A stretch of DNA of 64,000 bases from Desulfurococcales archaeon (GTDB lineage: Archaea; Thermoproteota; Thermoprotei_A; Sulfolobales; WAQK01): positions 543 to 64,542 of the forward strand of contig JALWQH010000023.1 in assembly GCA_027083135.1 (NCBI GenBank), given 5' to 3'. The position numbers and the translations under genes were made by a program. The first letter of the stretch is position 1. Each line of letters starts with the position of its first letter. This document shows, piece by piece, positions 43,332 to 60,094 of this stretch. Below the pieces are notes generated by a model. That model had not been told where the DNA came from, searched no databases, and worked only from the letters and a program-made list of their open reading frames with translations.

Positions 43332-43350
43332 GTGTCCATCCCGTGGACAC
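43332..43350. promoter_or_regulatory. Palindrome GTGTCCA-TCCCG-TGGACAC next to AT-rich TAAATA repeats
   Basis: Abuts minus-strand TATTTAAG at 43321-43328. Confidence 0.75.
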
Positions 43351-43523
43351 GATGCATCCACACACAGGGCTTCCAGGAACCCGTAGAGATACTGAGGAAG
43401 AGAATAAGAAGGAGGGATCATCCGCTCTAGGCGGATTCCTGCCGCCGTGCGGCTCCACATCCCCGCCCAGGCTCTCCAACCATATAGTAGAACATGTTCC
43501 TTCTTATCTTAATTGCCTCTCTT

Positions 43524-44042
43524 TTAGCCTGCTAGTCTTAGGAGGAGCTCCTCGGCAGCACGCTTCTGAGTGTAGCTTAGAATGTAGTCCAGCTTCTTAT
43601 GCCCCGTGAGCTTAGCTATCAGTTGGGCTGAAACCCCTCTCTCCGCTAGTTGCGAGATGAAAGCATACCTCAAGGCATGCGTGTTAAAGCCCAGGGCTTT
43701 CCTCGTCCACGACTTTATCCTGGAGACCACCGTGTCTAAGCCGTGGACACGCAGTCCAGCAACAGCGAGGCGCTCACCCCTCCCAAGCTCCCTCGGAACA
43801 ACAACCAGCCTCTCATAGGGATCCCGCCTCTTCCGGACCCTCACCCTCAGCTTCCTCCTACCCGTCTCAGCCCACTTGAAGGCGGCCTCCACGGCCTCGC
43901 TTATCCTAAGCCCATTGGAGAGCTGTATCAACAATATACTGATATATGCACGAGCCACAGGCCTGGCATCCCTAAGCCTACCAACCAAATCCCTCCTAAC
44001 AACATTGTAGTCCAACCCCTTATCCCACGCATACAAACCCAT
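43524..44042 (-). CDS. Mini tyrosine recombinase (catalytic domain only)
   Basis: NGLRISEA, THALRY, TGH, LSYTQ catalytic residues in 172 aa. Confidence 0.88.
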   Translation of the reverse strand: MGLYAWDKGLDYNVVRRDLVGRLRDARPVARAYISILLIQLSNGLRISEAVEAAFKWAETGRRKLRVRVRKRRDPYERLVVVPRELGRGERLAVAGLRVHGLDTVVSRIKSWTRKALGFNTHALRYAFISQLAERGVSAQLIAKLTGHKKLDYILSYTQKRAAEELLLRLAG

Positions 44043-44182
44043 AGGAGTTCACCCCACAGGAGGTATGCGGAGAAAAGATGAACCCCTAAGTAGGCCTGGA
44101 GTTCACCTTTAGGCCCAAACATAAACTAATAACCTTTTGAAGACATCAAAGAGGTATCAACGAGTAGTATACTGAAAAATTT

Positions 44183-44863
44183 CTATTTCCATTGCAAGGT
44201 GGGTGCTATTCTCCTGGCTACATCATCCATATGGCTTAATATTTCTTCTTCAAGTTTTCTATAACCTTTGTAAGGTCTTAATGATAAGTCTGCAAGCTCA
44301 ATAGCACCGAAAAATAGTGAAGATGACCTTACCGTTTCATCAAGTAAGACAAGGACATGTTGGGGAGAAGCCCTGGGCCCTTTTAAAGGAAGATGTAAAC
44401 CAGGAATAGAAACCTTTTGAGAAAATTTAAGAATAGCATATGCGGCAAGCTCCATTAGAACTCCTGATAAATATGTAGCAGAACTCTTTGAAAATATAAA
44501 AACAGGGATATCCGCTCTCTGAAAAGAGTATATGCTTCTGAGGAAGTTCTTTTCATTTTCTGAAAGGTTTCTTAAAAGATTTTTATCTAAATCCAAATAA
44601 TCGTCTGAGAGTTCCTTAACTAGATAAACTCTTTTATATCCTTTATCTATTAGCATTCCTTTCACTTTTTCCAGCAGCTTAATGCCCTGAGGGTCATCTG
44701 TTTTATAGGAGCCGTATAATATTATAGTATACTCCTCCCTTATTGTATCTAAGCCTTTATCAATAATAGCATGTGAAGCAACGGCGTTTTGTCCTACATC
44801 CTCATAACCCTGCTTATTCGCTGCTGCATGTTCAGAGGCATTAGATAGCTCGTCATGCCTCAT
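44183..44863 (-). CDS. Low-GC cargo protein, possible nucleoside deoxyribosyltransferase/TIR-like fold
   Basis: IILYGSY...ADIPVFIF...SGVLMELAAY pattern. Confidence 0.5.
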   Translation of the reverse strand: MRHDELSNASEHAAANKQGYEDVGQNAVASHAIIDKGLDTIREEYTIILYGSYKTDDPQGIKLLEKVKGMLIDKGYKRVYLVKELSDDYLDLDKNLLRNLSENEKNFLRSIYSFQRADIPVFIFSKSSATYLSGVLMELAAYAILKFSQKVSIPGLHLPLKGPRASPQHVLVLLDETVRSSSLFFGAIELADLSLRPYKGYRKLEEEILSHMDDVARRIAPTLQWK

Positions 44864-44978
44864 TGCATGATCGAAGCCACAACAAGTATTTTATAGTAAG
44901 TTATTTTAATTTTTCTCAAGTGGACTTGGAGGAAGACTTTAATACAGATACTCCTCAAAATTTTTTGAGGAGGTAGAA

Positions 44979-45446
44979 ATGTGGAGAGTAAAAAACCTGT
45001 TTCATCCCATGTTAAGAAGAGCCTTAAAGGCCTTAGATAACGAGAAAAGGCAGCTAATACTAAGCTATATAATAGAGGAGGGGCCTGCAAGTCCGAGCGA
45101 TATGGCAAAGGCTCTCGGTATGCGTGACAACAAGCTAGCATACCATATACGGCAGCTAGTGATAGGGAACATAATCGAAGGAAAAGTAAGAAGGGGGAAA
45201 GTAATATATAGACTAAAGCCCTTCGGCATAGATCTGCTAAACAACATTTTCAAAGCACTAATACCCCCTTCCTTAAGGACACCTTCAGAAAAAAGACACA
45301 AACTAATAAAAGACTATGAATTCGAGCTGCCTCGTTTTGAAATAGATTGGGAGGCAATAGAGAGAAAAATGCTAGCCTACCAAGATATAAAAGCAAACGA
45401 GCCTTTAACCCTACATCTGGAGGAGGCGATGATATATGAACACTAA
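44979..45446 (+). CDS. ArsR-like winged-helix regulator
   Basis: KALDNEKRQLIL...SDMAKALG...LAYHIRQL. Confidence 0.85.
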   Translation: MWRVKNLFHPMLRRALKALDNEKRQLILSYIIEEGPASPSDMAKALGMRDNKLAYHIRQLVIGNIIEGKVRRGKVIYRLKPFGIDLLNNIFKALIPPSLRTPSEKRHKLIKDYEFELPRFEIDWEAIERKMLAYQDIKANEPLTLHLEEAMIYEH

Positions 45447-45825
45447 TATAGGAAGTAACCTTAAAGAAGTTCTAGAACAAGCAAAGAAAGCTGAGAATCC
45501 TAAATTACGACTAGCATATATTAGCCATATACTGGGCACGTTCCATTCTCGGTGGCTGTATCTAAATGATCCCAATAGCTACTTGGCCATCCATTGCTTA
45601 GCCCCTGCTTATAATAGGCTATCCGAAATAATAGGAAAAACAGAAGATATCCAGGTAAGAGGCCTAGCTGGACAAAAATTCGAAAAAATAATGGAAATTA
45701 TTGAAAAAACTATAAAAATAATTGAAGAGGGAGATGCAACGCTAGAGAAACTTGCAAAGCTATATGTTGAAGAACTTATACCTGTAGAGCGAGACCTAAT
45801 AATATTAGCAAGGTCTTTAGAGTAA
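45436..45825 (+). CDS. Hypothetical helical protein coupled to the ArsR gene
   Basis: GGAGG RBS, overlap with the upstream gene. Confidence 0.7.
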   Translation: MNTNIGSNLKEVLEQAKKAENPKLRLAYISHILGTFHSRWLYLNDPNSYLAIHCLAPAYNRLSEIIGKTEDIQVRGLAGQKFEKIMEIIEKTIKIIEEGDATLEKLAKLYVEELIPVERDLIILARSLE

Positions 45826-45846
45826 AATATAATAAGTTATTTTTTA

Positions 45847-46112
45847 TCATATCAGATAATAACTTGGTTTTACCCTTTTAACCATAAAATGCCTGTAGAA
45901 GCACGAGGTTTCGGTTGTGCCCGCCAGGCCCTCAAGCCTCTCAACAACCCTCTCCAGCAAGGCCCTAAGGGGAACGCGCTCACCCCTAAGCCACCGGCTC
46001 AAACTACTAACACTGACACCACTAAGCCTGGCAACATCCCTCAAGCTGAAGCCCAAGCCCTCCAACAAGCCCACAAGCTCCCTAAACCTAGCCAGCAAGA
46101 CCTCAACCCTCA
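45847..46112 (-). CDS. XRE-family HTH protein (3' part of listed ORF 45847-46488; start approximate)
   Basis: GFSLRDVARLSGVSVSSLSRWLRGERVP. Confidence 0.75.
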
Positions 46113-46264
46113 ATGTTGCCACTCCGGCAACACCCCCACAAAAAAGACTAAACCAAAACAACACAAAACAAACAACAACCACCCAACCACACGAGACAAG
46201 TACAGGAAAAACGCTATTCAAAAAGCTAGTACAGAATATAATAAACATGGGAGGATAGGCAAAC

Positions 46265-47140
46265 ATGATTTCACAGGCAGTACTAGGAATTATAACGGTA
46301 CTAATACAGGCATTAATCGGCGTAGCATCCGTATGGTATATGAGGAAGCAAGCCGAGGAAACAGCCAAACTAGCGAGAGAAACAATCAAGGTCTCTGAAA
46401 GGGAGACAGTTATCGAGCTTCTAGCATGCCTTATAGAACCCCTAAAAGAAATGATAGGCAATGAAAGGCATGGAATGCTTAGGAGCATTAGGCAATCCCC
46501 AGCCGCTTATATTCCCGATCCCCGCCTACCAGAGGACAGCATTCTCTATATAACGAACTTTGACGAAACAACAAGAACAAGGTTGAAGAAGCGCCTAGAA
46601 AAATACCTCCGTAAATATGAAATGCTTAAAGACTGGAATAAGTACCGCAGGAAATACGAAGAAGAAGCAAAAAAGATACAGGAACTCAACTCAGAGCTGT
46701 CAAGAATAGTCCGGGAAGCAATCCTTGGAAATGAAAGATACTATGAGCTTGCAAAAGAGGAAGCAGGAAAAGAAATAAGCAGGAGCATAAGCCCAGAAGA
46801 ATATAACAAGCTAGTAGAGCAGCGAGTACGGGAATACATCGAGCCAGAAAAACTGCTCCCAGTCATAAAGAAGGCTTTAGAACTGCCACCAGAAAAATAC
46901 GATCACAGCGGCATATGGCATAATGTACAGCTCCGACAATTACTCCAACAAACACTCCAAGAAAAAGAAGCAAAAAAAGTACTAGAACAAAAACAGAGAA
47001 CCGCAGCCGAGCTAGAACAAACACTAGAAAAAATGCTAGAAAAAATAGAAGAGCTATTAGATAAACTAGATGAATATAATATCCCACAATATGAAATAGA
47101 AAAATGCCCCCTACCAGAAAAACCCAGAGTATCTTGGTAA
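46265..47140 (+). CDS. N-terminally anchored coiled-coil cargo protein
   Basis: One TM followed by Glu/Lys-rich helices; GGAGG RBS; A-rich DNA; opposite strand to neighbours. Confidence 0.8.
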   Translation: MISQAVLGIITVLIQALIGVASVWYMRKQAEETAKLARETIKVSERETVIELLACLIEPLKEMIGNERHGMLRSIRQSPAAYIPDPRLPEDSILYITNFDETTRTRLKKRLEKYLRKYEMLKDWNKYRRKYEEEAKKIQELNSELSRIVREAILGNERYYELAKEEAGKEISRSISPEEYNKLVEQRVREYIEPEKLLPVIKKALELPPEKYDHSGIWHNVQLRQLLQQTLQEKEAKKVLEQKQRTAAELEQTLEKMLEKIEELLDKLDEYNIPQYEIEKCPLPEKPRVSW

Positions 47141-47252
47141 GCCCAAGAAACCCATCCCCCATAAAATATAGCAACACAAAACCACCTAACATACCATGCA
47201 ACACCAGCTCTCCACCACACAAGACAACCCTGACGACCCCGCGGCTGTCACT

Positions 47253-48251
47253 TTAACGTGTGTTTAGGCGTGAGAGCTCGCGGTATGCTATTTCTGAGAC
47301 CATGCTTGTGAAGGACTCGTATCTGGATAGCCATTCTGGCTTCTGGTCTGGTGAGGCGATTAGGCCTTCTGGCCTCCATAATCGGTGCTCGAATCTTATG
47401 ACTCCTGGCCTCGGGCTATATACTACGGTCATCCTCCATCCCAGGCCTCTTAGCCTCTGTGTGACGCCTGTGTCAACGTGGTAGTCGTTGTGTAGTTCTA
47501 CCTGGTCGACGGGCCACGTCTTGCCTAGTAGGTGGGCCCTGAACAATGCCTCGCTCAGCAGCTTGGGTTCCCCATCCCTCTCCTTACTCACTATCTGCAT
47601 GCCTGAGACCCTCATGTTGTGAACCAGTACCTCCCTGGAGTCTAGGGAGACGTAGAAGCGTAAACGGTATAGGCCTAGTACCTTCTCCCCTGATACTAGG
47701 AGGGTTGAGGGCATGTATTCTATTAGGCCTCTCCTTCTAAGCCTCTTAAGGGCCTCGAATAAGGCCTGCCTGGTGTAGAGGTATCTGAGGAGCCTGAGCT
47801 TGTTTCTTATGGCTGATATGGTCCACCAGGATCCAGGCTGCTCGCTCATAACGTCCAGTATGAGGCGCTGGGTTCTGCCGAGCCTGCCAATGCTATTCGT
47901 CAACGGCTGCGTGACACTGTCAACGGGTTTGGGTGTCACGTTCCGTCCCACCAGCCTGGAGCCACCATCAGAGCCATCGCTCCCATCACTACCGTCAACG
48001 CTGCGTGTCACTTTAACATGCGTTAACAGTGAGAGGTACTTCTTATAGAGCCTCTCAACCCTCTTATAATGCATTCCCAGAGCCTTGCCTATCCTCCTAT
48101 AACCCAAGCCACGCTCACGGAGCCTATGGATCTCGCGGGCAAGCTCAAGATCCCCGCGGACATGGGCTGAGGGAACCGTGTCCACAGGATGGACACGATT
48201 GCTATGGGCCCTGGGCCCCCCGCGAACACCCGGGGAGCCCAGGGCACCCAA
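47253..48251 (-). CDS. HTH/wHTH protein, replication initiator candidate
   Basis: GLGYRRIGKALG HTH, second wHTH, internal DNA repeats, last gene of the early operon. Confidence 0.55.
   Translation of the reverse strand: MGALGSPGVRGGPRAHSNRVHPVDTVPSAHVRGDLELAREIHRLRERGLGYRRIGKALGMHYKRVERLYKKYLSLLTHVKVTRSVDGSDGSDGSDGGSRLVGRNVTPKPVDSVTQPLTNSIGRLGRTQRLILDVMSEQPGSWWTISAIRNKLRLLRYLYTRQALFEALKRLRRRGLIEYMPSTLLVSGEKVLGLYRLRFYVSLDSREVLVHNMRVSGMQIVSKERDGEPKLLSEALFRAHLLGKTWPVDQVELHNDYHVDTGVTQRLRGLGWRMTVVYSPRPGVIRFEHRLWRPEGLIASPDQKPEWLSRYESFTSMVSEIAYRELSRLNTR
48178..48196. promoter_or_regulatory. Palindrome GTGTCCA-CAGGA-TGGACAC in the 5' end of the Rep-like gene
   Basis: Same motif as 40286, 43332 and 43732. 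Confidence 0.7.
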
Positions 48252-48257
48252 GCATCA

Positions 48258-48419
48258 TCACCCCTTAGGAGAAGGCCTCTTAGAGGCAGCCAGGTTAGCC
48301 CTAGCCGTATCAGAAAGACAGCTATTCACAATGCAGTCCAGCATCTCCTTGGCTTCAGGGTTATGCTCATCGCAGTACTTGATGCAGAGAGCCTTGATGA
48401 CGTAGGCACTGCTATTCAT
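48258..48419 (-). CDS. 53-aa Cys-containing protein (not in ORF track)
   Basis: MNSSAYVIKALCIKYCDEHNPEAKEMLDCIVNSCLSD...; fills the operon gap. Confidence 0.55.
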   Translation of the reverse strand: MNSSAYVIKALCIKYCDEHNPEAKEMLDCIVNSCLSDTARANLAASKRPSPKG

Positions 48420-48685
48420 CATCTCCATACAGGCTCAGCCTCCTCACGCTTATAGCCGAGTTCACGGAAACGCCTAAGGATGGTTTCAGGGCTGGTAAGC
48501 CTCCTCAGAATCCTCAGGGGGATGAAGGGGAGAGGAGCATTATCACAGTACCTCCAGTAAAAATAGGTGGGGACGCTTCTAGGCTCCTCAGCCAGGTAGG
48601 GGAAGCGGCGGACAAGCTCATCCACACATCTCCTAACACGCTCAAAAGCCTCAGGATTCCTAGCCATCACTATTCCCCCACGCAT
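48419..48685 (-). CDS. Small viral protein
   Basis: LTSPETILRRFREL HTH-like segment; operon packing. Confidence 0.65.
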   Translation of the reverse strand: MRGGIVMARNPEAFERVRRCVDELVRRFPYLAEEPRSVPTYFYWRYCDNAPLPFIPLRILRRLTSPETILRRFRELGYKREEAEPVWR

Positions 48686-48914
48686 CCCTTAGCTGAGGGT
48701 AGAAGTCCACGAGCGTTGTGCTCGGAGAAGCCAGCTTCTTGTTCCTGAAGCCCCAGCAGCGGCCCACATAGTGGGTGACAGGTCTCTCAAACCTCCTGCA
48801 CCATCCCAGGCACCTCTCACCCCGCCTAGCCGCCAGTATCTCACATTCTTCTAGCTGCTCAGCATCCATGCCCCCACGCCCTACGAAGAAAACACACTTC
48901 CTGCAATCAGCCAC
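48660..48914 (-). CDS. Small Cys-rich (Zn-binding) viral protein
   Basis: CRKC, CLGWC and C motifs. Confidence 0.65.
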   Translation of the reverse strand: MADCRKCVFFVGRGGMDAEQLEECEILAARRGERCLGWCRRFERPVTHYVGRCWGFRNKKLASPSTTLVDFYPQLRDAWGNSDG

Positions 48915-49491
48915 TATTCTCCACCCCTGCTGGAATGTATTTTAGGAGAGTCAGGGTCTTCGCCTTGGTCTCAGCCCACCTGGAGGCTCCCCTGCTATAT
49001 GCTCTGAAGATGACCACGTTGTCCCTGGTGCTTATGATCCCTACTCCAGCCTTGACGGCTTCTTCGGCCAGATCGTGGCCAGCCATCCATGTCAGAATAT
49101 CGTTGACGGGTAGGTTAATGGCGGCATAGACGTAGTCTGCTAGGGGGCGGCGCTCCAATGCCTGCTCAAACACCTTTCCCAAGTCGCTTTCCTTCAGCTC
49201 CACTATGATGCTCTTCTGGCGGCCCTCTGGATGCCCCATGCAGCCCGTATCCTGGCATTTGATCAGCAGGTCGACCTCATGCCCCCCAACCCTAACATGC
49301 TGGCCAACATCGATCCACACACACGCTCCACCACAATGCGTGTCAAGCACCCTTCTAAGCCAAAACGCTAGAATCACCATGTCCTCCTCCTTAAACCTCG
49401 TCACGGCGCCCACCACCTCCAAGCCTCTCCAAGCATCTCCTCTCAGCCTGCTCCAAGCACCTGTCAAGCCGCTCCCACTCCTTGGCTTCAA
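48907..49491 (-). CDS. PD-(D/E)XK nuclease / resolvase-like protein (true start probably near 49404)
   Basis: EVDLLIK...IIVELKE...FEQA...DYVYAA. Confidence 0.65.
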   Translation of the reverse strand: MKPRSGSGLTGAWSRLRGDAWRGLEVVGAVTRFKEEDMVILAFWLRRVLDTHCGGACVWIDVGQHVRVGGHEVDLLIKCQDTGCMGHPEGRQKSIIVELKESDLGKVFEQALERRPLADYVYAAINLPVNDILTWMAGHDLAEEAVKAGVGIISTRDNVVIFRAYSRGASRWAETKAKTLTLLKYIPAGVENSG

Positions 49492-49600
49492 AAAGAGGGG
49501 CGCATTTGGCGTCCTCCTCCCCTATGCATCTCCAGAACTCCCTGCTATGCATCCAAGGCTCAGCCATAACTATCCCCTCCTGGCGAAGAGGATAGGTCAT
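49391..49600 (-). CDS. Small viral protein
   Basis: Operon packing, Cys-containing. Confidence 0.5.
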   Translation of the reverse strand: MTYPLRQEGIVMAEPWMHSREFWRCIGEEDAKCAPLFEAKEWERLDRCLEQAERRCLERLGGGGRRDEV

Positions 49601-49601
49601 C

Positions 49602-49802
49602 TCAGGATCCCCTCAGGGCTCTTGCCAGCCGCCTAGCCGCATCTTCTTCCCTCTCAGGCACTAGGAGCCAGAGACAGCTAGGATCGCCTGGCTGCCACAG
49701 CATGAGGCTCCAGCCCCTAGCATACAGCCTCATAGCCAGCTCAAAGTCCACCTCATCCACCACGCACTTCTCCCCATTACCCCCACTCATACAGGCATCC
49801 AC
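49602..49802 (-). CDS. Small viral protein
   Basis: Operon packing. Confidence 0.5.
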   Translation of the reverse strand: MDACMSGGNGEKCVVDEVDFELAMRLYARGWSLMLWQPGDPSCLWLLVPEREEDAARRLARALRGS

Positions 49803-50005
49803 TCCGAATCCTCTATCGGGTCTCCGCCAGGGCCTAGGCGGGCCCTAAGAGCCAGGAAGAGGATGAGGGCCTCCCTGATCGCCTCACTCCTACTCATACT
49901 CCTCCTGGCGGCATACCTGTCAAGCCTCTCCAAGATTTCGTCAGGCATCTTGAAGGCCACTATTCTCTGCCTCCTGCTTCGATAACGCTCACTGTAGAGA
50001 GCCAC
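49787..50005 (-). CDS. CopG/RHH DNA-binding protein
   Basis: IVAFKMPDEILERLDRYA...SRSEAIREAL. Confidence 0.88.
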   Translation of the reverse strand: MALYSERYRSRRQRIVAFKMPDEILERLDRYAARRSMSRSEAIREALILFLALRARLGPGGDPIEDSEWMPV

Positions 50006-50008
50006 GAC

Positions 50009-50194
50009 TCATCCCTGCTCGGATTGTTTCTGCTCCGCGATGATCTGTATTAGAGCCCCAATGTAGTACTGTGTGAGCCTATCCTCAAGCTCGCCTATCG
50101 CCTTCCTACACCTATCCTCATCCCCGCCGAGATTCTCAATGCATATCCGCATCAGCTTCCGCCTAAAACTAGGCTTAAACAACCCAGCCATCAC
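50009..50194 (-). CDS. Small viral protein
   Basis: RBS and translational coupling. Confidence 0.55.
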   Translation of the reverse strand: MMAGLFKPSFRRKLMRICIENLGGDEDRCRKAIGELEDRLTQYYIGALIQIIAEQKQSEQG

Positions 50195-50403
50195 TCCTCA
50201 CCCTCCTCTCTGCACAGCTTTCTCCTAAGGCTCCAGACCTCGTGCTCAGGGAACATTGCTAGTCCTCCTGGCAGGATGAGGGGTAGCCTGCGTCCATCCC
50301 TATGCCTGAGCACCACGATGTCCATGTCGGGAGCCTTGAACACTCCAGCCACCCTCCAGCCACAGGGCTCGAGGTTCAGCCTCAGGATATGGAGAGAGAC
50401 CAT
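50191..50403 (-). CDS. Small viral protein
   Basis: RBS and translational coupling. Confidence 0.55.
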   Translation of the reverse strand: MVSLHILRLNLEPCGWRVAGVFKAPDMDIVVLRHRDGRRLPLILPGGLAMFPEHEVWSLRRKLCREEGEE

Positions 50404-50409
50404 GATTAC

Positions 50410-50631
50410 TTACACCTCCATGAAGGAGCACTTGTAGCCTGCTCTGCTCAGAGCTCTGAGGATCCCGTAGGCCTGGTTGCTCAGGACAACTATGTGTACA
50501 CGGCTCCCCAGGTAGATCCAGCGCGTTGCTGGGAGCCTGAGCAGCACGCGCTCCAGCCTATCCTTATCCCCATCGAAGCAGCATGCAATAGTCCTGAAGA
50601 ACTCGAGTTCAGGGTCACCCATCCCTCTCAA
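50410..50631 (-). CDS. Small viral protein
   Basis: RBS and translational coupling. Confidence 0.55.
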   Translation of the reverse strand: MRGMGDPELEFFRTIACCFDGDKDRLERVLLRLPATRWIYLGSRVHIVVLSNQAYGILRALSRAGYKCSFMEV

Positions 50632-50837
50632 CCTCCCGCTGGAATAGTTCTGAATATTTCCCTGAACTTGACTGGCTCAATGGTGAGCAGGCTTAGAAGC
50701 TCGTCGTAGAGCAGCAGCCATACTGTGTTTCCCTCTAGACGCATTATCCTCTTCTTCGCCGCAAAGTAGCCCGCAGCTACCAGCGCATTATCATGCACAA
50801 GCTCCATTCTCTCAAGATCATAGATCTCCACCTCCAC
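50628..50837 (-). CDS. Small viral protein
   Basis: RBS and translational coupling. Confidence 0.55.
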   Translation of the reverse strand: MEVEIYDLERMELVHDNALVAAGYFAAKKRIMRLEGNTVWLLLYDELLSLLTIEPVKFREIFRTIPAGG

Positions 50838-50839
50838 GG

Positions 50840-51157
50840 CTACTCGCCTCCATCAAGGCTGCTCAGAGCATCAGCCACCAGGCGGCCACGCTCAGTAAGC
50901 TCATTCCACACCACAGGCCTCCCAGAGACTGGCAGGGAGCCAGCATAGCGGCGTATAAGCCCCCTAGCCTCAGCCTCCGCCAAGAGCTGCTGGCCACGCT
51001 CCCAGCTCGAGAGAAGCCCCAGCAGCTGCCTAGTATACATCCTGCCACGCCTAAGCAGCACCAGGATCCTCCAAGCACCACTCCTAACACTCCAAACAGC
51101 ATCCCCAACAACCATCCTACAGCTAACCCCACGAACAACACTCCTACCCGCACTCAA
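50840..51157 (-). CDS. Winged-helix DNA-binding protein
   Basis: AEARGLIRR...WNELTERGR wing motif. Confidence 0.7.
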   Translation of the reverse strand: MSAGRSVVRGVSCRMVVGDAVWSVRSGAWRILVLLRRGRMYTRQLLGLLSSWERGQQLLAEAEARGLIRRYAGSLPVSGRPVVWNELTERGRLVADALSSLDGGE

Positions 51158-51309
51158 ACCACAACACCCCGCCTAGCAAGCACATAGCGAACCAGATACC
51201 CCTCAGGACCCAGCCTATCCAGAATCCTCCCCACAAGCCCAGGATCCTCCCTAGCCCTAGCCTCCAGCTCATCCAGCAGCCTAGAGAACTCGCTAGGCTC
51301 CTCAGGCAT
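51154..51309 (-). CDS. 51-aa viral protein (not in ORF track)
   Basis: MPEEPSEFSRLLDELEARAREDPG...; GGAGGTGG RBS; overlaps both neighbours. Confidence 0.55.
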   Translation of the reverse strand: MPEEPSEFSRLLDELEARAREDPGLVGRILDRLGPEGYLVRYVLARRGVVV

Positions 51310-51508
51310 TGGCTGCCACCTCCTCCACGAAGGCTAGAACTCGTTTTACCATGAAGCCACTGCCATCGGGAAGAGGCTCTAGGAGCAGAGGCTCTTTTTC
51401 CTGAAGTGCTAGCTCCTTGAAGAGTTCTTTAGGTATCAGGATATAGTAGCTCTTGTTCTGCGGGGCCCCTCGCCCCACGATTCTTGTGGGATATGCTTTC
51501 TTGGCCAA
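51302..51508 (-). CDS. AbrB/SpoVT-like regulator, first gene of the leftward early operon
   Basis: SYYILIPKELFKELAL; GGTGA RBS. Confidence 0.8.
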   Translation of the reverse strand: MAKKAYPTRIVGRGAPQNKSYYILIPKELFKELALQEKEPLLLEPLPDGSGFMVKRVLAFVEEVAANA

Positions 51509-51632
51509 TTTATCACCATTACTCTAATGCCAATAATGACATATAAGTATTATTGACATAAATGGGGTAAAGTCAATATGCCTAACTTATCCAAATAAAC
51601 GTAATTTTATAAAGAGGCCATCTAGATCCATA
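51509..51632. promoter_or_regulatory. Divergent promoter / putative lysogeny switch region
   Basis: AT-rich, TATA boxes on both strands; inverted repeats CAATAAT/ATTATTG (51531-51555) and TATTGAC/GTCAATA (51551-51578). Confidence 0.7.
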
Positions 51633-51815
51633 GTGATAATATTGGGAGAAGAGATCCATGTTGGAAGAGTAATTGAGAGAAGAGTAGGGCCCTACGCCTC
51701 CTTTTACCTAAACATCCCCAAGCCTATAGCACTAAAACTTAAAGTTAGAAAGGGAGATGTCTTCAAAATTGAAATAATTGATGAAAAAACCATAAAGGCT
51801 ACAAAGCTAACTTAA
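51633..51815 (+). CDS. AbrB/MazE-like regulator
   Basis: VGPYASFYLNIPKPIALKLKVRKGD. Confidence 0.85.
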   Translation: MIILGEEIHVGRVIERRVGPYASFYLNIPKPIALKLKVRKGDVFKIEIIDEKTIKATKLT

Positions 51816-51841
51816 CAAAAGCATGCAAAGAGGCAGCAGAC

Positions 51842-52033
51842 ATGGAGAAAACCAAATACTACATTGTGAGGATAACTGAGAAGAAGGTTGGGCCCTACAG
51901 CTCATTATATATGAACATCCCGAAAGAACTAGTCATGAGACTAAGCCTAAAGAAAGGAGACATAGTGAAAATAACCGTAATCGAGGAAGAGGGAAAGAGA
52001 AGCTTCAAATGCGAAAAGCTGGAGCTAAGCTAG
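51842..52033 (+). CDS. AbrB/MazE-like regulator, tandem paralog
   Basis: VGPYSSLYMNIPKELVMRLSLKKGD. Confidence 0.85.
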   Translation: MEKTKYYIVRITEKKVGPYSSLYMNIPKELVMRLSLKKGDIVKITVIEEEGKRSFKCEKLELS

Positions 52034-52294
52034 CCTACGCAGAAATCAGCACATATATCACCCAGCCTCTCCTCCAGCTCACCAAGCAGCTGAGCCAAAA
52101 CTATCAACGCATAAGTATCAATATGCTTCTCCTTATACAGCTCCCCAATCTCAGGCCAAACCTCCTCATCAATAAACGCCGACACCGCAACCCCCCATCC
52201 TAGAATCAACACTATATAAAGCGGAGAGACCAGGGTGAAAATATTCGGCAGGCAAAGTTTATTAGGTTGCATCCCTATATGTACATAGGGGTAT

Positions 52295-52633
52295 GTGGAT
52301 ATGGGGATACCTACTCCAAGAGAGCCTGAAAACATTAAGGAGCTGATCAGAACAATAAGGGCTAGAATGGGTGGTGAAGGCAGCAGAAGTGACATTGACT
52401 ATGACTCACTGTCTGTCTGGGGCTTCAATAAGCTGCCTAAGTATCTATGGGAGCAGTGGAAAACCGAGCTAAAGGAGAGAGGCATTACATGGCAGAAGTT
52501 CCTCAGAATATTGAAGCTTCATACATTAGACATGATACAATGGGCACTTAGAGATTCTCTATCATGGAGCGAACTAGTGGGGAAAATAGAAAAATCCATT
52601 GAAAACTATTCTAAAAGAGAGCAGAATATTTGA
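52295..52633 (+). CDS. Hypothetical protein
   Basis: 112 aa with protein-like composition. Confidence 0.65.
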   Translation: MDMGIPTPREPENIKELIRTIRARMGGEGSRSDIDYDSLSVWGFNKLPKYLWEQWKTELKERGITWQKFLRILKLHTLDMIQWALRDSLSWSELVGKIEKSIENYSKREQNI

Positions 52634-52703
52634 CGCTTACCTTATCTCTAAGGGCCTAGGAGTCCAGTAGCTTGCCTCTTGCATTAATAACTACTAGGCT
52701 CTC

Positions 52704-53888
52704 CTATATCGGTAGCTGTTCATGTATTGATGTAAGTATTCTGCTGGCCTCTTCGTCTGATTCTCCGCTCATCATGTCTATTGCTTCTATACGTCTCCTC
52801 CCCTTCTCCGCGATTTTACAGGCATAGTATGGGTAATATATTAGCCTGTAATCCTTGACTACTCCCTCCCAGAACACTTTAACCATGTTTTCAAGGCCGC
52901 TTAGATTTAGCTTGGGAGTTAAGATTGCTTCTTTACTGCTTTGCAGAGGCTTTAGAGGCAGCTGAGGCGCCAGTGTTCTCAGGGCTGCTGGATCAGGGAT
53001 CCTCTGTTTCAGAACATATATTCCTCGCCCACCCTGTGCAACCAGCCCTTTGATGACGAGGCCTTGAACTATTCTCCTAGCCTTGGATGTAGAGCATCCT
53101 AGAAATGCTGCTAGGCCTGAAGTAGTTATCTGGGGGCGTACTAGGAAGAGTTTAAGAGCCTTGGCTTCATCCTCAGTAAGCCTTGAGATACGCAGCACCC
53201 TCTCAACCCGTTTTCCAGTATAGTTGCAGAGGCTTCCATCCATAGCATCTACAAGTATTGCTGAATTAACTATTAGCTCCTTAGTCGTCCTCCTAAGCAC
53301 CCCCCTCGAGACATATATTTTTCCTTCAATATGGGCCTCATAGAATGGGTAAAATATAACGGCGCATTCCTCTATAGCTCCCTTCATACCGAGGAAACCC
53401 TTAAGCTTTCTTTCAACCACTAGCCTGCATTGTCCAGCCCCTATTCTCGGCTCCACGTAGAAGGCATTCTGGGGAGCCTTTGCCTCCTCTAATGGTATTT
53501 CGCCTAATAGTTCTCTCAGCTTCGCCTGATCCCATAGGTCTATGTTGTAGCCCGAGGCTGTTGAGACCGCGTCAGGCGTGAAGTAGGATGTTGTGACAAG
53601 TATTCCCCTATCTACTCCTAGGTCGTTCACCTCGCTTATGAGCTTCATAACTATATCCTTGTTGACAGGCTTATCGTAGGCCTTGCATTCAACTATTATC
53701 CTGGAGGTGTGGAGAGGAGCCTTATACTCAGCGTAGACATCTATCTGGTGCTTGACCCCTGAGCGCCCCACCAGCAAGGCATTATGCTTAGCATAGTACC
53801 CCTTAGCCTCGAAGAGCCTAGTAATAAGCTTCTCAAGCTCAACACCCTTCTCATAAGCCTTCTCATAAGCGTTCTCCAACACCCTCAC
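52704..53888 (-). CDS. Mrr-like restriction endonuclease fused to a wHTH-containing C-terminal region
   Basis: ELEKLITRLFEAKGY, HQIDV, IVECKAY, GILVTTSYFTPDA. Confidence 0.85.
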   Translation of the reverse strand: MRVLENAYEKAYEKGVELEKLITRLFEAKGYYAKHNALLVGRSGVKHQIDVYAEYKAPLHTSRIIVECKAYDKPVNKDIVMKLISEVNDLGVDRGILVTTSYFTPDAVSTASGYNIDLWDQAKLRELLGEIPLEEAKAPQNAFYVEPRIGAGQCRLVVERKLKGFLGMKGAIEECAVIFYPFYEAHIEGKIYVSRGVLRRTTKELIVNSAILVDAMDGSLCNYTGKRVERVLRISRLTEDEAKALKLFLVRPQITTSGLAAFLGCSTSKARRIVQGLVIKGLVAQGGRGIYVLKQRIPDPAALRTLAPQLPLKPLQSSKEAILTPKLNLSGLENMVKVFWEGVVKDYRLIYYPYYACKIAEKGRRRIEAIDMMSGESDEEASRILTSIHEQLPI

Positions 53889-54039
53889 TATTCCAAATAT
53901 AAAACACGAAGGAGAATTTAAAGGAATAACATCTCCAGAACACTACACAACGTTGATCCCAACTAATCGATAACAAAAACACCTCAAACCAAGCATTTAT
54001 GCTGAAACAAGCCTCTATAATTCAATGAAGGTGAAATAG

Positions 54040-54531
54040 GTGGCATTAAATCTCCTATACTTTGCACAGGTGGTGTTCGAAGGAGCAATGGTAATAGGCA
54101 CCTTCCTGATGGCTATCATGACAGGCCTTATGGCATTAGAAACCATGAAGGATAGAAGACTAAGATTAATAGAGAAGAGGTTGGACGAGTTCTATATGCC
54201 GCTCATAGAGCTCTTCTCCACGCCCGCCTTGAAAGATCAGAGATACGTTGAAAGGGTGAATAGAATAGTTATTGGTAAGCGGTATCTCAGCGGGCCTAGG
54301 ACTGCTAGGGTTTTACCTTCAACCTTCTCCCCTAAATTCCAGGTTGGTGGCCAAGAATACAAGCTGGGGGAAGAGGCTGGGACCTGGCGGAGGGTGGCTG
54401 ATGTTATCTGGGAGGAGGCGAAGAGCTATATCGAGCAATATTACCGCTTAGGAGGCATAAGGGACTACTCTCTGCCCAGGGAGAAGCCTAAGTGGCTGTT
54501 CTCAGAAAGTACTGGCTTTAAGGGAGCTTAA
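54040..54531 (+). CDS. N-terminally anchored hypothetical protein
   Basis: One TM followed by IEKRLDEFYMPL; GGTGA RBS. Confidence 0.7.
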   Translation: MALNLLYFAQVVFEGAMVIGTFLMAIMTGLMALETMKDRRLRLIEKRLDEFYMPLIELFSTPALKDQRYVERVNRIVIGKRYLSGPRTARVLPSTFSPKFQVGGQEYKLGEEAGTWRRVADVIWEEAKSYIEQYYRLGGIRDYSLPREKPKWLFSESTGFKGA

Positions 54532-54687
54532 GACTACTCGCATGAAACCCGGAGTTGCTCAGCAAGGATGTGGAATGGCCTGCTGAGGAAGGTGAAGTCT
54601 GCCTAAGAGGGCATTAGATGCTTTGCGGTGATTAATAGCCATGAATAGCTGTCGAAATAATAGTAAACTATGCAAGGCTTACGTTTT

Positions 54688-55545
54688 TTAACTGTTTATT
54701 TTGGGAAGATTCTTCAGCAGGTTTTCTAGTTCTTTCCATGTGAGTATTATTGCTGGGTAGGGTGTTTTTCCTTCTCTTTCCTTGGCTATTACTCGGCGGA
54801 TTTCTTCTAGCCTTGTCTTCTCGTGTGGTGGGACCAGGTATACTGGGATGAACTTTACGTGGGGGAGGCATTGGGCTATGTCGTCGTACTCTGAGCTGAA
54901 CTCCTTGGCTCGTTTCACCAGGTCTCTGCGTACGCCTGTCCTGACCTGTAGGGCTATTTCTACTCGGCGTGGATCAGGGGGTATGGCGGCGTCTACTTCG
55001 ATCTCCTTGCCTCCGCAGTGTATCTTTATCTTGCCGCAGGGGTGGCCGTGCTTCTCGGCGAGCTCTCTGACAGCTTCTTCTATGCGGGCCCGGTAGTGGC
55101 GTTTCTGGTGTTCCTCCCAGTTCTTGTAGAACTTATATATCACTGTTTCCAGGTGGAGGGGGTGTTTCAGGCTGCTTGACACGAGTTCTGCGAACCTGTA
55201 GGCTGTCCTCGTCTTCCTCCTGAAGGCCTCAGGCCTCCTCAAAGTGTAGACGTCGTCTATTCCTGCTAGGCGTTCAAGCTCCCTGACGCTGAAGCCGCAT
55301 ATCATGACGAAGAAGGGTATCATGACGCCGGGATCCCTCGCCATGAGCCCGTATATGTCTCTAGGGGAAGCCTTGTCGAATCTTATGAGCCCTGTCTCCT
55401 CCTCGTAGAGCCTTGATTCCACCAGTATTCCGCCGATCCTCCTAGCCATGTCGTCGAGGTCGGAGTAGAGGTGGGGGAGCTCCTCCTTATTTGGCCTCGG
55501 AATCCTGGCCAGGATGTCCTCCACCAGTCCTGCAGGCCTGCTCAT
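54688..55545 (-). CDS. Putative type II restriction endonuclease
   Basis: Coupled (ATGA overlap) to the MTase; EVDAAIP...IALQVR variant of PD-(D/E)XK. Confidence 0.65.
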   Translation of the reverse strand: MSRPAGLVEDILARIPRPNKEELPHLYSDLDDMARRIGGILVESRLYEEETGLIRFDKASPRDIYGLMARDPGVMIPFFVMICGFSVRELERLAGIDDVYTLRRPEAFRRKTRTAYRFAELVSSSLKHPLHLETVIYKFYKNWEEHQKRHYRARIEEAVRELAEKHGHPCGKIKIHCGGKEIEVDAAIPPDPRRVEIALQVRTGVRRDLVKRAKEFSSEYDDIAQCLPHVKFIPVYLVPPHEKTRLEEIRRVIAKEREGKTPYPAIILTWKELENLLKNLPKINS

Positions 55546-56978
55546 AGTAGTTGCCTCAGGCTAAGTGTTTTCACGCCCTTTGAATAAAGGCTTTCAGGGA
55601 TGGGCAGGTTTTTGAAGAGCGTGGCCTGTAGTCTGAGGTACCCGTTGGCCGCCCTCTGGGCATGCGCCTCGATCCACATCTCCACTTCTCTGCTGCTAAG
55701 GTATTCTAGGAGGCCTGGTATGATGGAGGGGTTGCGGGGGACAAGGTAGTAGACGTTGTGTCTGGGTATTATTCGTCCCTCAGGGTCCCACCAGAACCTG
55801 GGCTCCTTCTCCACGTCTCTCCAAAGGATCTTGGGCTTAGCCAGGGTCTTCATAGGCGGGTTTTCGTGGAAAGCATACCATTTCTTCCCAACGATCCTCA
55901 CGGCCCTCCTCTTCTCGAGCTCCCCTCTATGCCTCGCAAGGTATTCTAGGAGGGGCTTGGCCTCCTCTTCGCCTAGGAGCCGCCCCTCCCTGTCATAGGG
56001 GACGAGCATGACGTGCTTTAGCTTGGAGTAGTCTATGGGTCCCCCTGCCTTGAAGCGTGCCAGCTCCTCCCCGCTCACCGTGGGCCAGGCGTAGGGCCTG
56101 AGCTCCTCGGGGAGCATATCCCTCCTAACCACGAAGATGTTGTCTCTCCCCGTGGCTACTCCTGCGCTTATCCTGACGCATATTTCCCTGAGCCTGTGCT
56201 TGTACTGTTTGAGCCTGGTTGGCTGCAAGCGGACCATGGCTTCACCCAGCCAGGGCGACCCGTCCCTGGGTAGATACACAGTGGTTCTGGAGCCGTCTCT
56301 GAGGATGAAGGTTGTAGGGCCTGGAGCCTCCTTGTCCACCACTGTTACCGCGGGGTAGGCTAGTATTTCTCCGAAAGCCTCCTCCTCAACCAGCTCCACC
56401 TCCACCACATGGTGCTGGGCTAATAGTCTCCGCAGGGCTCGGGCAGAGTGGACGTATAGGTATTTCTCAGGCGTTATGAAGACCAGTCTGCCCCCAGGAT
56501 TGAGGAGCCTGAGAGCCTTCTCGAAGAACAACATGTAGGTGTCGAACCTGCCTGTAGCCGTCCTGTAGAGCCGCTTATACTTCTCCCTGAGATCCATGGG
56601 CAGCCTCTCAATCGAAATGTAGGGCGGGTTGCCTACAACATAGTCGAAGGCTCCGAGACCCTCTAGGAGGAGGAAGTCTCCCTGCACAATGGTCACATTG
56701 GACAGGTCCCTGTACCTCGCCCTACAGGCCCTAGCCATACCCGCATCTATCTCCACACCCACGATCCTAGGAGGCCTCACCCCCCTCCTCTCACACCACC
56801 GGAGAACACCGTCAATGAAGGCTCCAAGCCCGCAGCCTGGATCAAGAACCCTGTCCCCAGGCCTAGGAGCCTTCCCAGCAAACAGCTTCCCAACCATACG
56901 GTCAACTAGCCTCGGCGGCGTGAAAACCACACCCTCAGCAGCCCTGATCCTCTGCCTCCCCACAGCCATGCACCACAA
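55542..56978 (-). CDS. N6-adenine DNA methyltransferase, gamma class (TaqI/Eco57I-like)
   Basis: VFTPP, VLDPGCGLGAF (motif I), GNPPY (motif IV), C-terminal target recognition domain. Confidence 0.93.
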   Translation of the reverse strand: MWCMAVGRQRIRAAEGVVFTPPRLVDRMVGKLFAGKAPRPGDRVLDPGCGLGAFIDGVLRWCERRGVRPPRIVGVEIDAGMARACRARYRDLSNVTIVQGDFLLLEGLGAFDYVVGNPPYISIERLPMDLREKYKRLYRTATGRFDTYMLFFEKALRLLNPGGRLVFITPEKYLYVHSARALRRLLAQHHVVEVELVEEEAFGEILAYPAVTVVDKEAPGPTTFILRDGSRTTVYLPRDGSPWLGEAMVRLQPTRLKQYKHRLREICVRISAGVATGRDNIFVVRRDMLPEELRPYAWPTVSGEELARFKAGGPIDYSKLKHVMLVPYDREGRLLGEEEAKPLLEYLARHRGELEKRRAVRIVGKKWYAFHENPPMKTLAKPKILWRDVEKEPRFWWDPEGRIIPRHNVYYLVPRNPSIIPGLLEYLSSREVEMWIEAHAQRAANGYLRLQATLFKNLPIPESLYSKGVKTLSLRQLL

Positions 56979-57103
56979 GCAATCCTACATTCTTCACAGA
57001 GACTTAATACTAGCCGTATTTATAAGGGCCTCTAGGACTTAATTATTTAGTCCATAAATCTTTAATTATAACATGATATAGATCAGGGATACAGCAGGTC
57101 TAT

Positions 57104-57703
57104 GTGAAATGCTGGGTTGCCAAATATACTGAAGGTGGCCTAATAGTGTCCGGTGAACGGCTCGATATAGAGTGCCCTTACTGTGGAGCTATAATCAGCC
57201 TCTTCCTGAAGCCTAGAACTATAGAACTTCAGGGAAGTTTATCTACGGCTTCATTAGCAGTTAGTATTTCAGGAGGGCCGGTAGCCATATCCAGTATAGA
57301 TGTTTCCTGCAATTTTTGTGGAAGCCGGTACAGGTGGTACCGCATAGCTTCCCGGGATGTGGTTACCATGATAAGGTATACTGAGGCTTTTCTCGGCTGG
57401 CTCAAAAGATATAACCTGCCTCTAGAGAAGCTGGAATCATATATTATTGCCGTAGTTGAGCCCAAGACAAGCCGCTGGGCCCGGCTCAGGCATCCTTTCC
57501 GTAGAAGAAGGCATGGAGAAGCTCCCTTCAAGCTCGTGGAACTAGTCCTTAAGGTTGAGCGTGAGGGCCGTATCTACAGGGCCGCCGTGCCCGGCAAGCT
57601 CTACCTGAAGCCCCCATTTCACATAGATGTAGCTCCCGGCACCTGGATGACTGGCCCGCCTCCTGAGAGGCAAATCTCAAATAGCTTGGGGGAGGGGAAG
57701 TAA
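57104..57703 (+). CDS. Zn-ribbon hypothetical protein
   Basis: CPYC and CNFC pairs; first gene of a three-gene operon. Confidence 0.65.
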   Translation: MKCWVAKYTEGGLIVSGERLDIECPYCGAIISLFLKPRTIELQGSLSTASLAVSISGGPVAISSIDVSCNFCGSRYRWYRIASRDVVTMIRYTEAFLGWLKRYNLPLEKLESYIIAVVEPKTSRWARLRHPFRRRRHGEAPFKLVELVLKVEREGRIYRAAVPGKLYLKPPFHIDVAPGTWMTGPPPERQISNSLGEGK

Positions 57704-57704
57704 A

Positions 57705-58262
57705 ATGAGTGAAGAGGAACTCAGAATGACCCTATCCTATGAGGAAGCACTTAAAAAATACAAGGAGCTTCCCAAGCCTGTGTTAGGGCAGGACGAGCTC
57801 GTGCTGCTGCTCCTCGGCCTCCTTGACAAGCCAGTTAATGGCCGCACCGTGTTGATGAAGGAGCTCTTCCTGCTCCACGAGGAGCTCAAAAACAAGGTTC
57901 AAGTAGCCTCGCCTAGATTCTATCCTTATAAATACGGGCCCTTCAGCTCTGAGCTCCTCCTAGTCGTGGAGCTGCTAGAACGCTATGACTACATCTCAGT
58001 TAAGAATAGGCGTACACGCACGGCCACCAAGTATATGCTTACCAGTAAGGGAAGAAAAGCCGCTAAAGCTGTGATAGAGAGGCTCACCCGGATCCTGGGG
58101 GAAGGCTACATTGAGAAGCTTAAACAACTAAGAATTGGATGGGATCAGCTGGGACACCACGGCATATTAAACTACGTATATAAACTATACCCTGAGTATA
58201 GGGAGAAGTCGCTGCTTAAAGAGAAGTATCAACCCATGGACTGGGGGGTATCAGAGGCTTGA
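57705..58262 (+). CDS. Panacea/SocA (DUF4065)/YwgA-like antitoxin-type protein
   Basis: GRTVLMKELFL, FYPYKYGPFSSEL, YMLTSKG, YVYKLYPEY. Confidence 0.75.
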   Translation: MSEEELRMTLSYEEALKKYKELPKPVLGQDELVLLLLGLLDKPVNGRTVLMKELFLLHEELKNKVQVASPRFYPYKYGPFSSELLLVVELLERYDYISVKNRRTRTATKYMLTSKGRKAAKAVIERLTRILGEGYIEKLKQLRIGWDQLGHHGILNYVYKLYPEYREKSLLKEKYQPMDWGVSEA

Positions 58263-59551
58263 TTGAAGTAAAAGTGAGAAGCATCGTTGAAGAAGGCCCT
58301 GGATTCGCCAGAACCGCTGAGATAACCATAGATAATATACGGATAGAGACGCCGAGCAGAGTCTTGGTGCGCACGGATCTTAACGCTAAAAGAAGCGTGC
58401 CGACGCAAATAGTCCTGGAAAACAAGCTTGTTCTTCTAAACATACCGCTAAGCGCCTTAACCCTTGCAGGAGCACCATCTGATAAGGCTGACCTTCACCT
58501 ATACAGGGCTGTCAGGGAGCTGGAAAGATTATACGGAGATCTCTATGGGATTCATGGGCTAATACCCTACCTTTATCCCAGCGGCAAGGGTTCTGAGACT
58601 TTCCTGAAAAGCGTTAGGCATGTGAGAGAATTTGTTTTAAGACAGCTACCAATGTTGCTGGGAGCTCCAAGAGATTATCGTTTCACAACAGTGCTTATCC
58701 CGCCTTTAGGAGTGCCTCTCCATGAATACAGGGATCTGCTTAAAAACGCGGCAAAACGGTTTGAACAGCTAGGGATCGAGATCATCCCAGTGCTCGATAT
58801 AGGCCTAGGAACCAAGAAGTTCATCCCCCTGTTAGACTACGTTGTCAACGAGTTGGATGCCCGTATGGTCTGCATAAAATACAGGGAGATAACCAGCCAC
58901 TTAACGGCTTATCAGCATCTGCAAAACTTCATGGATAGAAGCGTAGGCTTCATGTACATAGACGTACCCAGACACTATGACTTCGCTGTAAAGGACTTTG
59001 CAATGACGCATCTCGTCCCACTGCTTGGCAGCGACCTTATAGCCCCGCATCTACCCTCATATAAGGGTAGATGGACCCCCCTAAGATTTACGCATGGAAG
59101 CTTCAGGCTTATGCATAGAAAAGAACTCAGACTTCCACCCATCTCAAAGCTACACCCGCAAACCCGGGTCAACCTTCTAGACGAACTCGAGATAAACTTT
59201 GACAGAGCCATGCTGTCAGGAATGAGGAGATTCATTGTGGAATACAAGCCCATAGAAAGGGATATGCTGAAAATAACAGAACTACAACAACAGGTAAAGG
59301 CGTTTAGAGAGAGGCAACGCCCTATACCCGACGAATTTAAGAAGGAACTGAGAAAACTTAGAGGTCGGCTGACAAGCCTCTATGCTTTGACGCGCATCCA
59401 GGAAGTTAAGGCCAGCACCAAGGAGTTCGGAACTCTTCGACACTATATGAAGTCAGGGGAAATGAAGGAATATACCCAGGATAGGCGTACACTTAGCAGG
59501 GCTATCCAGGTCCTCAGTGATCTTAGTAAGCAGTCTTCCTTATTCAAATGA
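58259..59551 (+). CDS. Hypothetical protein with a tRNA-guanine-transglycosylase-like N-terminus (TIM barrel candidate)
   Basis: FARTAEITIDNIRIETP resembles the TGT N-terminal motif; IIPVLD; no CxCxxC Zn site seen. Confidence 0.45.
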   Translation: MIEVKVRSIVEEGPGFARTAEITIDNIRIETPSRVLVRTDLNAKRSVPTQIVLENKLVLLNIPLSALTLAGAPSDKADLHLYRAVRELERLYGDLYGIHGLIPYLYPSGKGSETFLKSVRHVREFVLRQLPMLLGAPRDYRFTTVLIPPLGVPLHEYRDLLKNAAKRFEQLGIEIIPVLDIGLGTKKFIPLLDYVVNELDARMVCIKYREITSHLTAYQHLQNFMDRSVGFMYIDVPRHYDFAVKDFAMTHLVPLLGSDLIAPHLPSYKGRWTPLRFTHGSFRLMHRKELRLPPISKLHPQTRVNLLDELEINFDRAMLSGMRRFIVEYKPIERDMLKITELQQQVKAFRERQRPIPDEFKKELRKLRGRLTSLYALTRIQEVKASTKEFGTLRHYMKSGEMKEYTQDRRTLSRAIQVLSDLSKQSSLFK

Positions 59552-59740
59552 TGAAGACTTAGGCTTCCAATAAATCATGATTCACAGGCAAAGATAGTAG
59601 CCTGCTTGCTACACACATGCCTTACCCATACTACGTATTTTCGCTTATCCATCGCCTGTAGAACCTGCCGACTTTCACAATCAAATCCTTTCACGTTAAG
59701 ACTATCCTATCCATGGAAGGAAAAGTTTCTACATCCCAGG

Positions 59741-59801
59741 GTGTCAGCACTCAAGACCCTCTTCATCTCCCAGGGGATCAGCACTGCCGAGCTCATCACA
59801 C
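59741..59801 (-). ncRNA. Box C/D guide sRNA containing the attR core
   Basis: gtg-TGATGA(C)-gctcggcagtg-CTGA(D')-tcccctggg-AGATGAA(C')-gagggtcttgagtg-CTGA(D)-cac; TTTAAA at 59829-59834 upstream. Confidence 0.88.
59744..59757 (+). repeat. attR core TCAGCACTCAAGAC
   Basis: Exact copy of 27454-27467; inner arm TTCTACATCCC at 59727-59737. Confidence 0.85.
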
Positions 59802-60094
59802 TTCATATGTACTCCTCTGGCACAGCGCTTTAAAGATATGGCTGGCTGCATTAATAACATAGCCAAGGCATATTCCTTAGGTGAGTAATGTTCCCTCAAT
59901 ACTTATCTCCACTTAATCTAGAAGCATGCATTATTGATTAGAATAATCATTTACAGCAACTCTTGCTATAGGGTAATGCCTATATTCAGGGACTTTCATG
60001 GCTTTAGATCCCTGTATAGAAGATTAGTATAGACATAGTTTCATGCCTAGCATAATGGTAAAATGAGGTGCCCTCATGGCTGAGGGCTTAGCTC

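Follow-up and report, generated by a model that had tools for sequence, protein, structure and literature searches.

Results

Provirus and gene content

The window, by which we mean the whole stretch of 64,000 nucleotides analysed here, carries a 32,304-bp provirus at 27454..59757, both copies of its bounding repeat included; the corresponding circle would measure 32,290 bp. All features are collected in Table 1. Thirteen ORFs match the spindle-shaped virus APSV1 in conserved order (tblastn against APSV1 bases 1-28483), with identities of 50% for a 905-aa protein, 45% for the ATPase and 44% for a 90-aa membrane protein (to orf22), and this shared ordered core block makes the provirus similar to spindle-shaped viruses as far as its genes are concerned. 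The ORF of the 373-aa tyrosine integrase, which is intact, starts 72 nt inside the left core, retains the complete R-K-H-R-H/W-Y set of catalytic residues (R155, K182, H250, R253, W275, Y284) and encodes a C-terminal zinc ribbon. On both sides the switch from virus-like to cellular genes coincides with a copy of the core.

Elsewhere in the same genome, a further virus-like region carries an APSV1-like ATPase of 36% identity (G000:C34:38772-48000). On the same contig, the 16S rRNA gene is broken after approximately model position 496 by an ORF-bearing insert (G000:C34:50101-51425, L001), which is likely a homing-endonuclease intron.

Table 1. Coordinates of the features at the provirus and its two junctions (positions in the window).
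Feature	Position	Strand	Basis or remark
Left flank, like the element-side arm 3' of the same sRNA elsewhere	27425..27453	-	alignment
Left att core	27454..27467	+	exact repeat TCAGCACTCAAGAC
Virus-side half guide	27454..27476	-	consensus C'-like GTGATGA (27476-27470) in register with 12-nt guide and D box
Element-side arm GGGATGTAGAA	27481..27491	+	inverted partner of 59727-59737
Tyrosine integrase, 373 aa, intact	27540..28661	+	PF00589, E 1.5e-31
APSV1-like core genes, order conserved	31398..48251	-	tblastn against APSV1
Second, short (172 aa) tyrosine-recombinase-like ORF	43524..44042	-	PF00589, E 4.7e-10; phrog_9208
Cargo toward right end: Mrr-like nuclease, type II DNA methyltransferase, ORFs of unknown function	52704..59551		
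Element-side arm TTCTACATCCC	59727..59737	+	inverted partner of 27481-27491
Box C/D guide sRNA gene, whole at right junction	59741..59801	-	boxes read; homologs; alignment
D box CTGA	59744..59747	-	sequence
Right att core	59744..59757	+	D box and 10 guide nt; CTCAAGA (Leu(CAA) anticodon-loop 7-mer) at 59750-59756
D guide	59748..59759	-	antisense to tRNA-Leu anticodon stem-loop
C' box ATGAAGA	59760..59766	-	sequence, alignment
D' guide (59792-59782) and D' box CTGA (59781-59778)	59778..59792	-	sequence
C box GTGATGA	59793..59799	-	sequence, alignment
TATA-like TTTAAA, approximately 30 nt upstream of C box	59829..59834	-	sequence; host-side promoter inferred

A conserved box C/D sRNA gene at the right junction

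The right-hand copy of the repeat lies within a small RNA gene in which C, D', C' and D boxes surround two guides of 10-12 nt, and TCAGCACTCAAGAC comprises the D box and 10 of the 12 D-guide bases. An earlier note on this DNA had read both repeat copies (27454-27467 and 59744-59757) as the reverse complement of the D box plus 10 nt of the D guide of a canonical C/D sRNA (59741-59801) with an upstream TATA; our reading of the boxes and of TTTAAA on the minus strand is in good agreement with this. Its statement that all four boxes stay intact at attR is supported and extends to the putative promoter, which is also situated on the right-hand junction. Neither end carries a tRNA gene, again as the earlier note had it, since ARAGORN calls none in the window.

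In the comparison with Rfam, no model of this guide family matched, with 0 hits at gathering score, whereas 8 of 9 sub-threshold matches over 59650-59900 belong to C/D families (best RF00095, 18.4 bits against 45, E 0.13). Conservation of the sRNA, another point to be checked, is well supported: the exact core occurs in 131 of 325 genomes of the order (reversed control 0), and among 40 relatives queried by BLAST with 59700-60400, 11 gave a match, which in each case fell on the sRNA. A 14-row alignment shows little or no variation in the boxes and the D guide, and the model derived from it recovers a single full sRNA copy in the genome, plus the left junction. Among the homologs, expression is documented for Sac-sR108 of Sulfolobus acidocaldarius (coverage 2152) and for IHOsR37, which belongs to Ignicoccus hospitalis (680) (PMC4644070). 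The gene at 59741..59801 can be regarded as that of a conserved box C/D sRNA whose homologs have RNA-seq coverage. In other loci (L165, L346, L347, L351-L353, L362) the Leu guide gene is often found within approximately 200 nt of a tRNA gene (Gly, Arg), and in L362:1840-1900 (genome G200) the Leu guide takes the first (D') position in swapped order, as it does in NeqsR12.

The D guide forms 11 pairs, 10-11 of them Watson-Crick, with the anticodon stem-loop of tRNA-Leu(CAA) from three relatives. The N+5 rule leads to tRNA-Leu position 34, with a Watson-Crick pair at N+5, and ribose methylation of this position is therefore the predicted function of the sRNA. Among the 31 tRNAs called in the assembly tRNA-Leu(CAA) is absent; with the Leu(UAA) of the genome itself, the D guide forms 11 pairs including G:U. 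An rRNA target was rejected in favour of tRNA-Leu, the best rRNA match reaching at most 7 Watson-Crick pairs. For the D' guide, the best predicted target lies close to G603 in the 16S rRNA of a relative, with 9 Watson-Crick pairs out of 11 (prediction only), and pairing with the D arm of tRNA-Leu was unsupported by the target comparison. Since the D guide is complementary to the anticodon loop of tRNA-Leu(CAA), the loop 7-mer CTCAAGA itself appears on the plus strand of the core.

Architecture of the junctions

The repeat is exactly 14 bp long, does not extend on either side, and is found at these two places only in the whole 1.75-Mb, 57-contig assembly. Taken alone it carries little weight: among 300 random 150-nt windows of the genome, 21 give an exact match of at least 14 nt in the same 35 kb, which would suit a chance repeat and a provirus that ends elsewhere. 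The same explanation could draw on the four public runs listed, none of them an RNA run, in which no circle or empty-site joints were found; the reads were inspected at the right junction. One of them, the possible source run, holds a single unbroken contig across the right junction (X1); others yielded only 59993-61800, short of the sRNA (X2), or the conserved gene only (X4). Against chance stands the behaviour of the arms. When the element ends are rejoined in silico, the core becomes flanked by TTCTACATCCC and GGGATGTAGAA as a perfect inverted repeat of 11 bp, an arrangement that arises only on rejoining, and none of 300 arm shuffles scored as high. Both copies, moreover, sit at the switch between virus-like and cellular genes, and the same core bounds unrelated elements in other genomes, as described below. 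Because of the inverted repeat and this recurrence the att site goes beyond chance; a coincidental repeat is hardly credible, and that an att site at the C/D sRNA gene is real we hold to be very likely.

The left junction appears to have a longer history. Its flank can be aligned to the arm found downstream of the sRNA in G001, G039, G322, G181, G094 and G115, and two tandem MazE-like/PIN toxin-antitoxin pairs lie next to it (25597-27290); PIN genes also occur in the G019 and G094 islands. From this likeness and the neighbouring MazE/PIN pairs we take the left flank as the probable relic of an older insertion, so that the predicted empty site is itself probably an older, decayed insertion. A third, decayed core was searched for to the left of 27454, and none was found. 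The half guide on the virus side is devoid of a C or D' box and has no counterpart in the far ends of the other elements.

Use of the same site in other genomes

At least two cores are present in 10 of the 131 genomes with the core, and all nine besides the present one were examined. In G001, the intact sRNA and a second core enclose a 3.1-kb island without integrase, and the arms have their centre at the 7-mer (0/300 in the shuffle test). G019 shows the sRNA with a frameshifted integrase behind it and, in tandem, two further cores, whose arms score 0/300 (G019a) and 41/300 (G019b). An 860-bp island with a PIN gene and no integrase was found in G094, where the arms are not significant (238/300). 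In G202, one contig carries the intact sRNA, core and flank, and another a foreign arm, the core and the same flank; the pair is identical at 133 of 134 nt downstream and at 14 of 60 upstream. As read from these contigs, G202 holds an empty and an occupied allele at a homologous site. The remaining multi-copy Leu cores were not counted, owing to contig overlap or break (G007, G116), two sRNA copies (G029) or a lack of arms (G201, G205).

The att sites of the integrase homologs, which the earlier note had proposed to inspect, show the same core in G325 (L223) and L273 and a Val-guide core in G127. The G325 element is 10.8 kb long with the core at both ends, an integrase of 38% identity and arms at 8/300. 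Its two core copies differ inside the D box, and this places the crossover within the guide. The element of L273 is complete, measures 6.4 kb and has a core of 16 bp and arms of 13 bp (0/300). The same sRNA precedes the integrase in L273, L275 and L276, i.e., in 3 of the 71 metagenome loci examined (out of 80; L336-L344, short matches, were left out), and in G181, which has one core, a frameshifted integrase homolog directly follows the sRNA. Of the 77 homolog loci on genome contigs, 21 are within 1 kb of a tRNA and one (L223, G325) is accompanied by this sRNA. At L293:150-290, a short core-like stretch within a protein gene is followed by an integrase and arm of the L273 kind; this may be a secondary site.

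In viral contigs the core pattern occurs at 120 loci; none of them has C' box context or matches the integrase, and they were taken as chance; the integrase search of the viral contigs gave no match.

A second guide gene of this kind is used in G127. [quoted passage not shown] This sRNA is found intact 170 kb away in inverted orientation, followed by TraG-like and secretion ATPases, and between them the halves carry an inverted repeat of 11 bp whose centre coincides exactly with the loop complement (0/300). The Val-guide core is found in 125 of 325 genomes; its second copies in G032, G122, G254 and G255 are devoid of arms and seem to be fortuitous, and in G116 the sRNA is present twice. The inverted att halves could be explained by a serine resolvase encoded close to the G127 integrase (L159:9886-10497).

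The genome studied here harbours a second, 16-kb virus-like element (G000:C54:28198-44722; L371, L375), which sits in the tRNA-Val(CAC) gene itself, repeats the tRNA's 5' half and has its integrase split by the tRNA half in an SSV-like manner. In this order, tRNA-Val and its guide thus both serve as att sites.

Which recombinase acts at the site

Given a real site, the recombinase could be another one than the integrase next to it, namely the 172-aa ORF or the host XerA. A copy of the short ORF with 48% identity is present in the G325 element, and the islands of G001 and G094 have no integrase at all; L273, however, shows no match to the short ORF, and it is the full-length integrase family that adjoins the core in G000, G325, L273, G181, G019 and G127. 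We judge another recombinase to be very improbable. The reading we prefer, and regard as probably correct, is that the repeat is the att core and that the provirus's own integrase inserted an APSV1-like circle into the 3' end of the C/D sRNA gene.

Integrase phylogeny

The tree of the integrases was computed by FastTree for 137 rows and by IQ-TREE for 38 rows picked by hand from them; L332, with a tRNA-Leu past the 3' end of its integrase gene, is in neither. FastTree unites the five Leu-guide integrases in one group of 31 rows without tRNA-adjacent rows. In the IQ-TREE result, a split with 99/95 support separates 17 rows, which include all 6 sRNA-adjacent ones, from 21 rows with all 15 tRNA-adjacent ones; for 11 of the 17 integrases on the sRNA side no sRNA was identified. 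Rfam gave no match in 15 loci of sister integrases. Short repeats of tRNA pieces in L196, L203 and L259 lie in coding DNA and were dismissed as fortuitous. In L287, the sister of L273, a C/D-like gene occurs at equal spacing, and its candidate guides best match 16S rRNA with 9 Watson-Crick pairs each. Judged from its near end, L287 seems to use a 16S rRNA guide gene.

Discussion

What the integrase recognizes

Two descriptions of the target choice have to be weighed. In the first, the integrase would originally have crossed over in the anticodon loop of a tRNA, have switched to a guide carrying the same 7-mer on the other strand and have reached other guides later. This is in agreement with several facts: both well-supported targets, Leu and Val, are position-34 guides; tRNA-Leu adjoins 10 of the 21 tRNA-adjacent homologs; the core stands in tRNA sense just before the integrase in the provirus and G127; and anticodon loops represent the classical 7-bp overlap (PMC8371274, in the part available). 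The arms, too, centre on the loop complement in G001, G019a and G127 (offset 0), with offsets of -1 in the provirus, -2 in L273 and +3 in G325. As the centres vary, these data fix no crossover point. The N+5 rule, on the other hand, itself sets the distance between loop complement and D box, such that the symmetry cannot separate anticodon mimicry from anchoring at the D box. Furthermore, the tRNA-Leu-adjacent homologs, mostly Micrarchaeota, repeat the tRNA 3' end and not the loop wherever a repeat is seen, and a clade joining them with the provirus integrase is rejected (p-AU 8.6e-48).

In the second description, this integrase group reads the guide/D-box end of C/D genes in general, anticodon guides being among its targets. 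We consider this likely and favour it because the N+5 geometries coincide, because no relative using a tRNA anticodon loop was found among the homologs examined, and because the L287 guides point to rRNA. A switch from the anticodon loop is, in comparison, unlikely.

Still more far-reaching, C/D guide genes might form a general archaeal attB class that was entered via anticodon guides as antisense DNA copies of tRNA anticodon loops. We offer this tentatively and with considerable doubt. If it were true, the genes for tRNA-modification guides would be hotspots at which viruses, plasmids and conjugative elements insert throughout Thermoproteota.

For the provirus we propose the following course of events, on the basis of tyrosine-recombinase chemistry. 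With the inverted arms bound by the integrase, strands would be exchanged inside the D guide, either within the 7-mer that lies 3-9 nt ahead of the D box or beside it. The virus would supply the guide end and D box, and for this reason the sRNA gene would stay whole under its own promoter. The gene likely serves as a target because it is short, single-copy and widely conserved.

Comparison with known systems

The earlier note had inferred a different class of attB and knew of no described case. Both statements are supported, with qualifications. The target is a C/D gene and not a tRNA gene, but its guide is antisense to the tRNA-Leu loop, which brings it closer to the classical tRNA attB. Likewise, no description of a C/D gene was found, but archaeal attB sites outside tRNA genes have been published: the accessible text of PMC8371274 names only tRNA genes, intergenic sites and protein genes as integration targets, with no occurrence of 'sRNA'. 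Our search, in which subscription journals were mostly outside the scope, yielded no published case of a C/D gene as attB, including the parts available of PMC10919331, PMC13573593, PMC7668247 and bioRxiv 10.1101/2021.04.21.440749. PMC6563490, as far as accessible, lists no sRNA or snoRNA target, and the 16 occurrences of 'intergenic' in its table may hide guides. A 2021 review (PMC7994747, accessible part) says that the mobile features of C/D genes in archaea have yet to be uncovered. What is new with respect to published non-tRNA attB sites is specifically the C/D guide gene, and new here are the provirus, the Thermoproteota hosts and the tRNA-anticodon guides.

Since C/D guide genes are poorly annotated, att sites within them would be filed as intergenic and missed by island finders based on tRNA and tmRNA genes. 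With a conserved 14-mer in 131 of 325 genomes of the order, element ends become easy to map, and the site is a candidate neutral landing pad in Thermoproteota. The sRNA att site ties guide-RNA genes to mobile DNA, and the antisense link to the anticodon loop opens a direct way to ask how integrases change their target.

Guides for position 34 are known from other archaea. Pyrococcus Leu(CAA)/(UAA) guides (PMC7994747), Pyrobaculum sR45 for Val C34 (PMC6009581) and Sac-sR108 (PMC4644070) share the box layout and an anticodon-complementary guide with our sRNA, and Sac-sR108 has the same D' start and D guide, with a one-base difference at its guide end. In the available portions of these three articles they are not mentioned as integration sites ('integra' and 'virus' have 0 occurrences in that of PMC6009581). 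Bacterial prophages likewise use small stable RNA genes as attB, ncRNA making up 13.5% and tmRNA 11.7% of their RNA targets (PMC13626063); a C/D or snoRNA class is not named in the accessible text and supplement of that study.

Among viruses, APSV1 (Aeropyrum pernix spindle-shaped virus 1, HE580238) shares the 13-gene ordered block and the 90-aa membrane protein with the provirus. It is annotated with an SSV-type integrase (orf53), whereas the provirus has a different, non-suicidal integration module. In the SSV type, att lies inside the integrase gene, which is split upon integration; here the gene is intact and the core is found 72 nt upstream. The best matches of the integrase among 50,697 phage records, at 33-34% identity, are those of Geoglobus acetivorans pleomorphic virus 1 and ThalV2, pleomorphic viruses of Archaeoglobi whose integrases fall on the tRNA-adjacent side of the tree. 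The haloarchaeal SNJ2 family (PMC5861418, accessible part) resembles the provirus in its 14-bp core and in att being next to the integrase gene. Its members, however, carry substitutions at Glu/Asp-I (Gly/Ala) and His/Trp-III (Ala/Val) and have att past the 3' end of the integrase gene in a tRNA gene, whereas our integrase keeps E158 and W275 and has att before its 5' end, and is thus not of the SNJ2 type. The pNOB8-like 'classical' non-suicidal integrases, which act at the 3' parts of tRNAs (PMC8371274, accessible part), share with the provirus an intact integrase gene beside att, a short direct repeat, a host RNA gene rebuilt under its own promoter and the re-use of the site in tandem; they target tRNA genes, whereas the provirus targets a box C/D guide gene.
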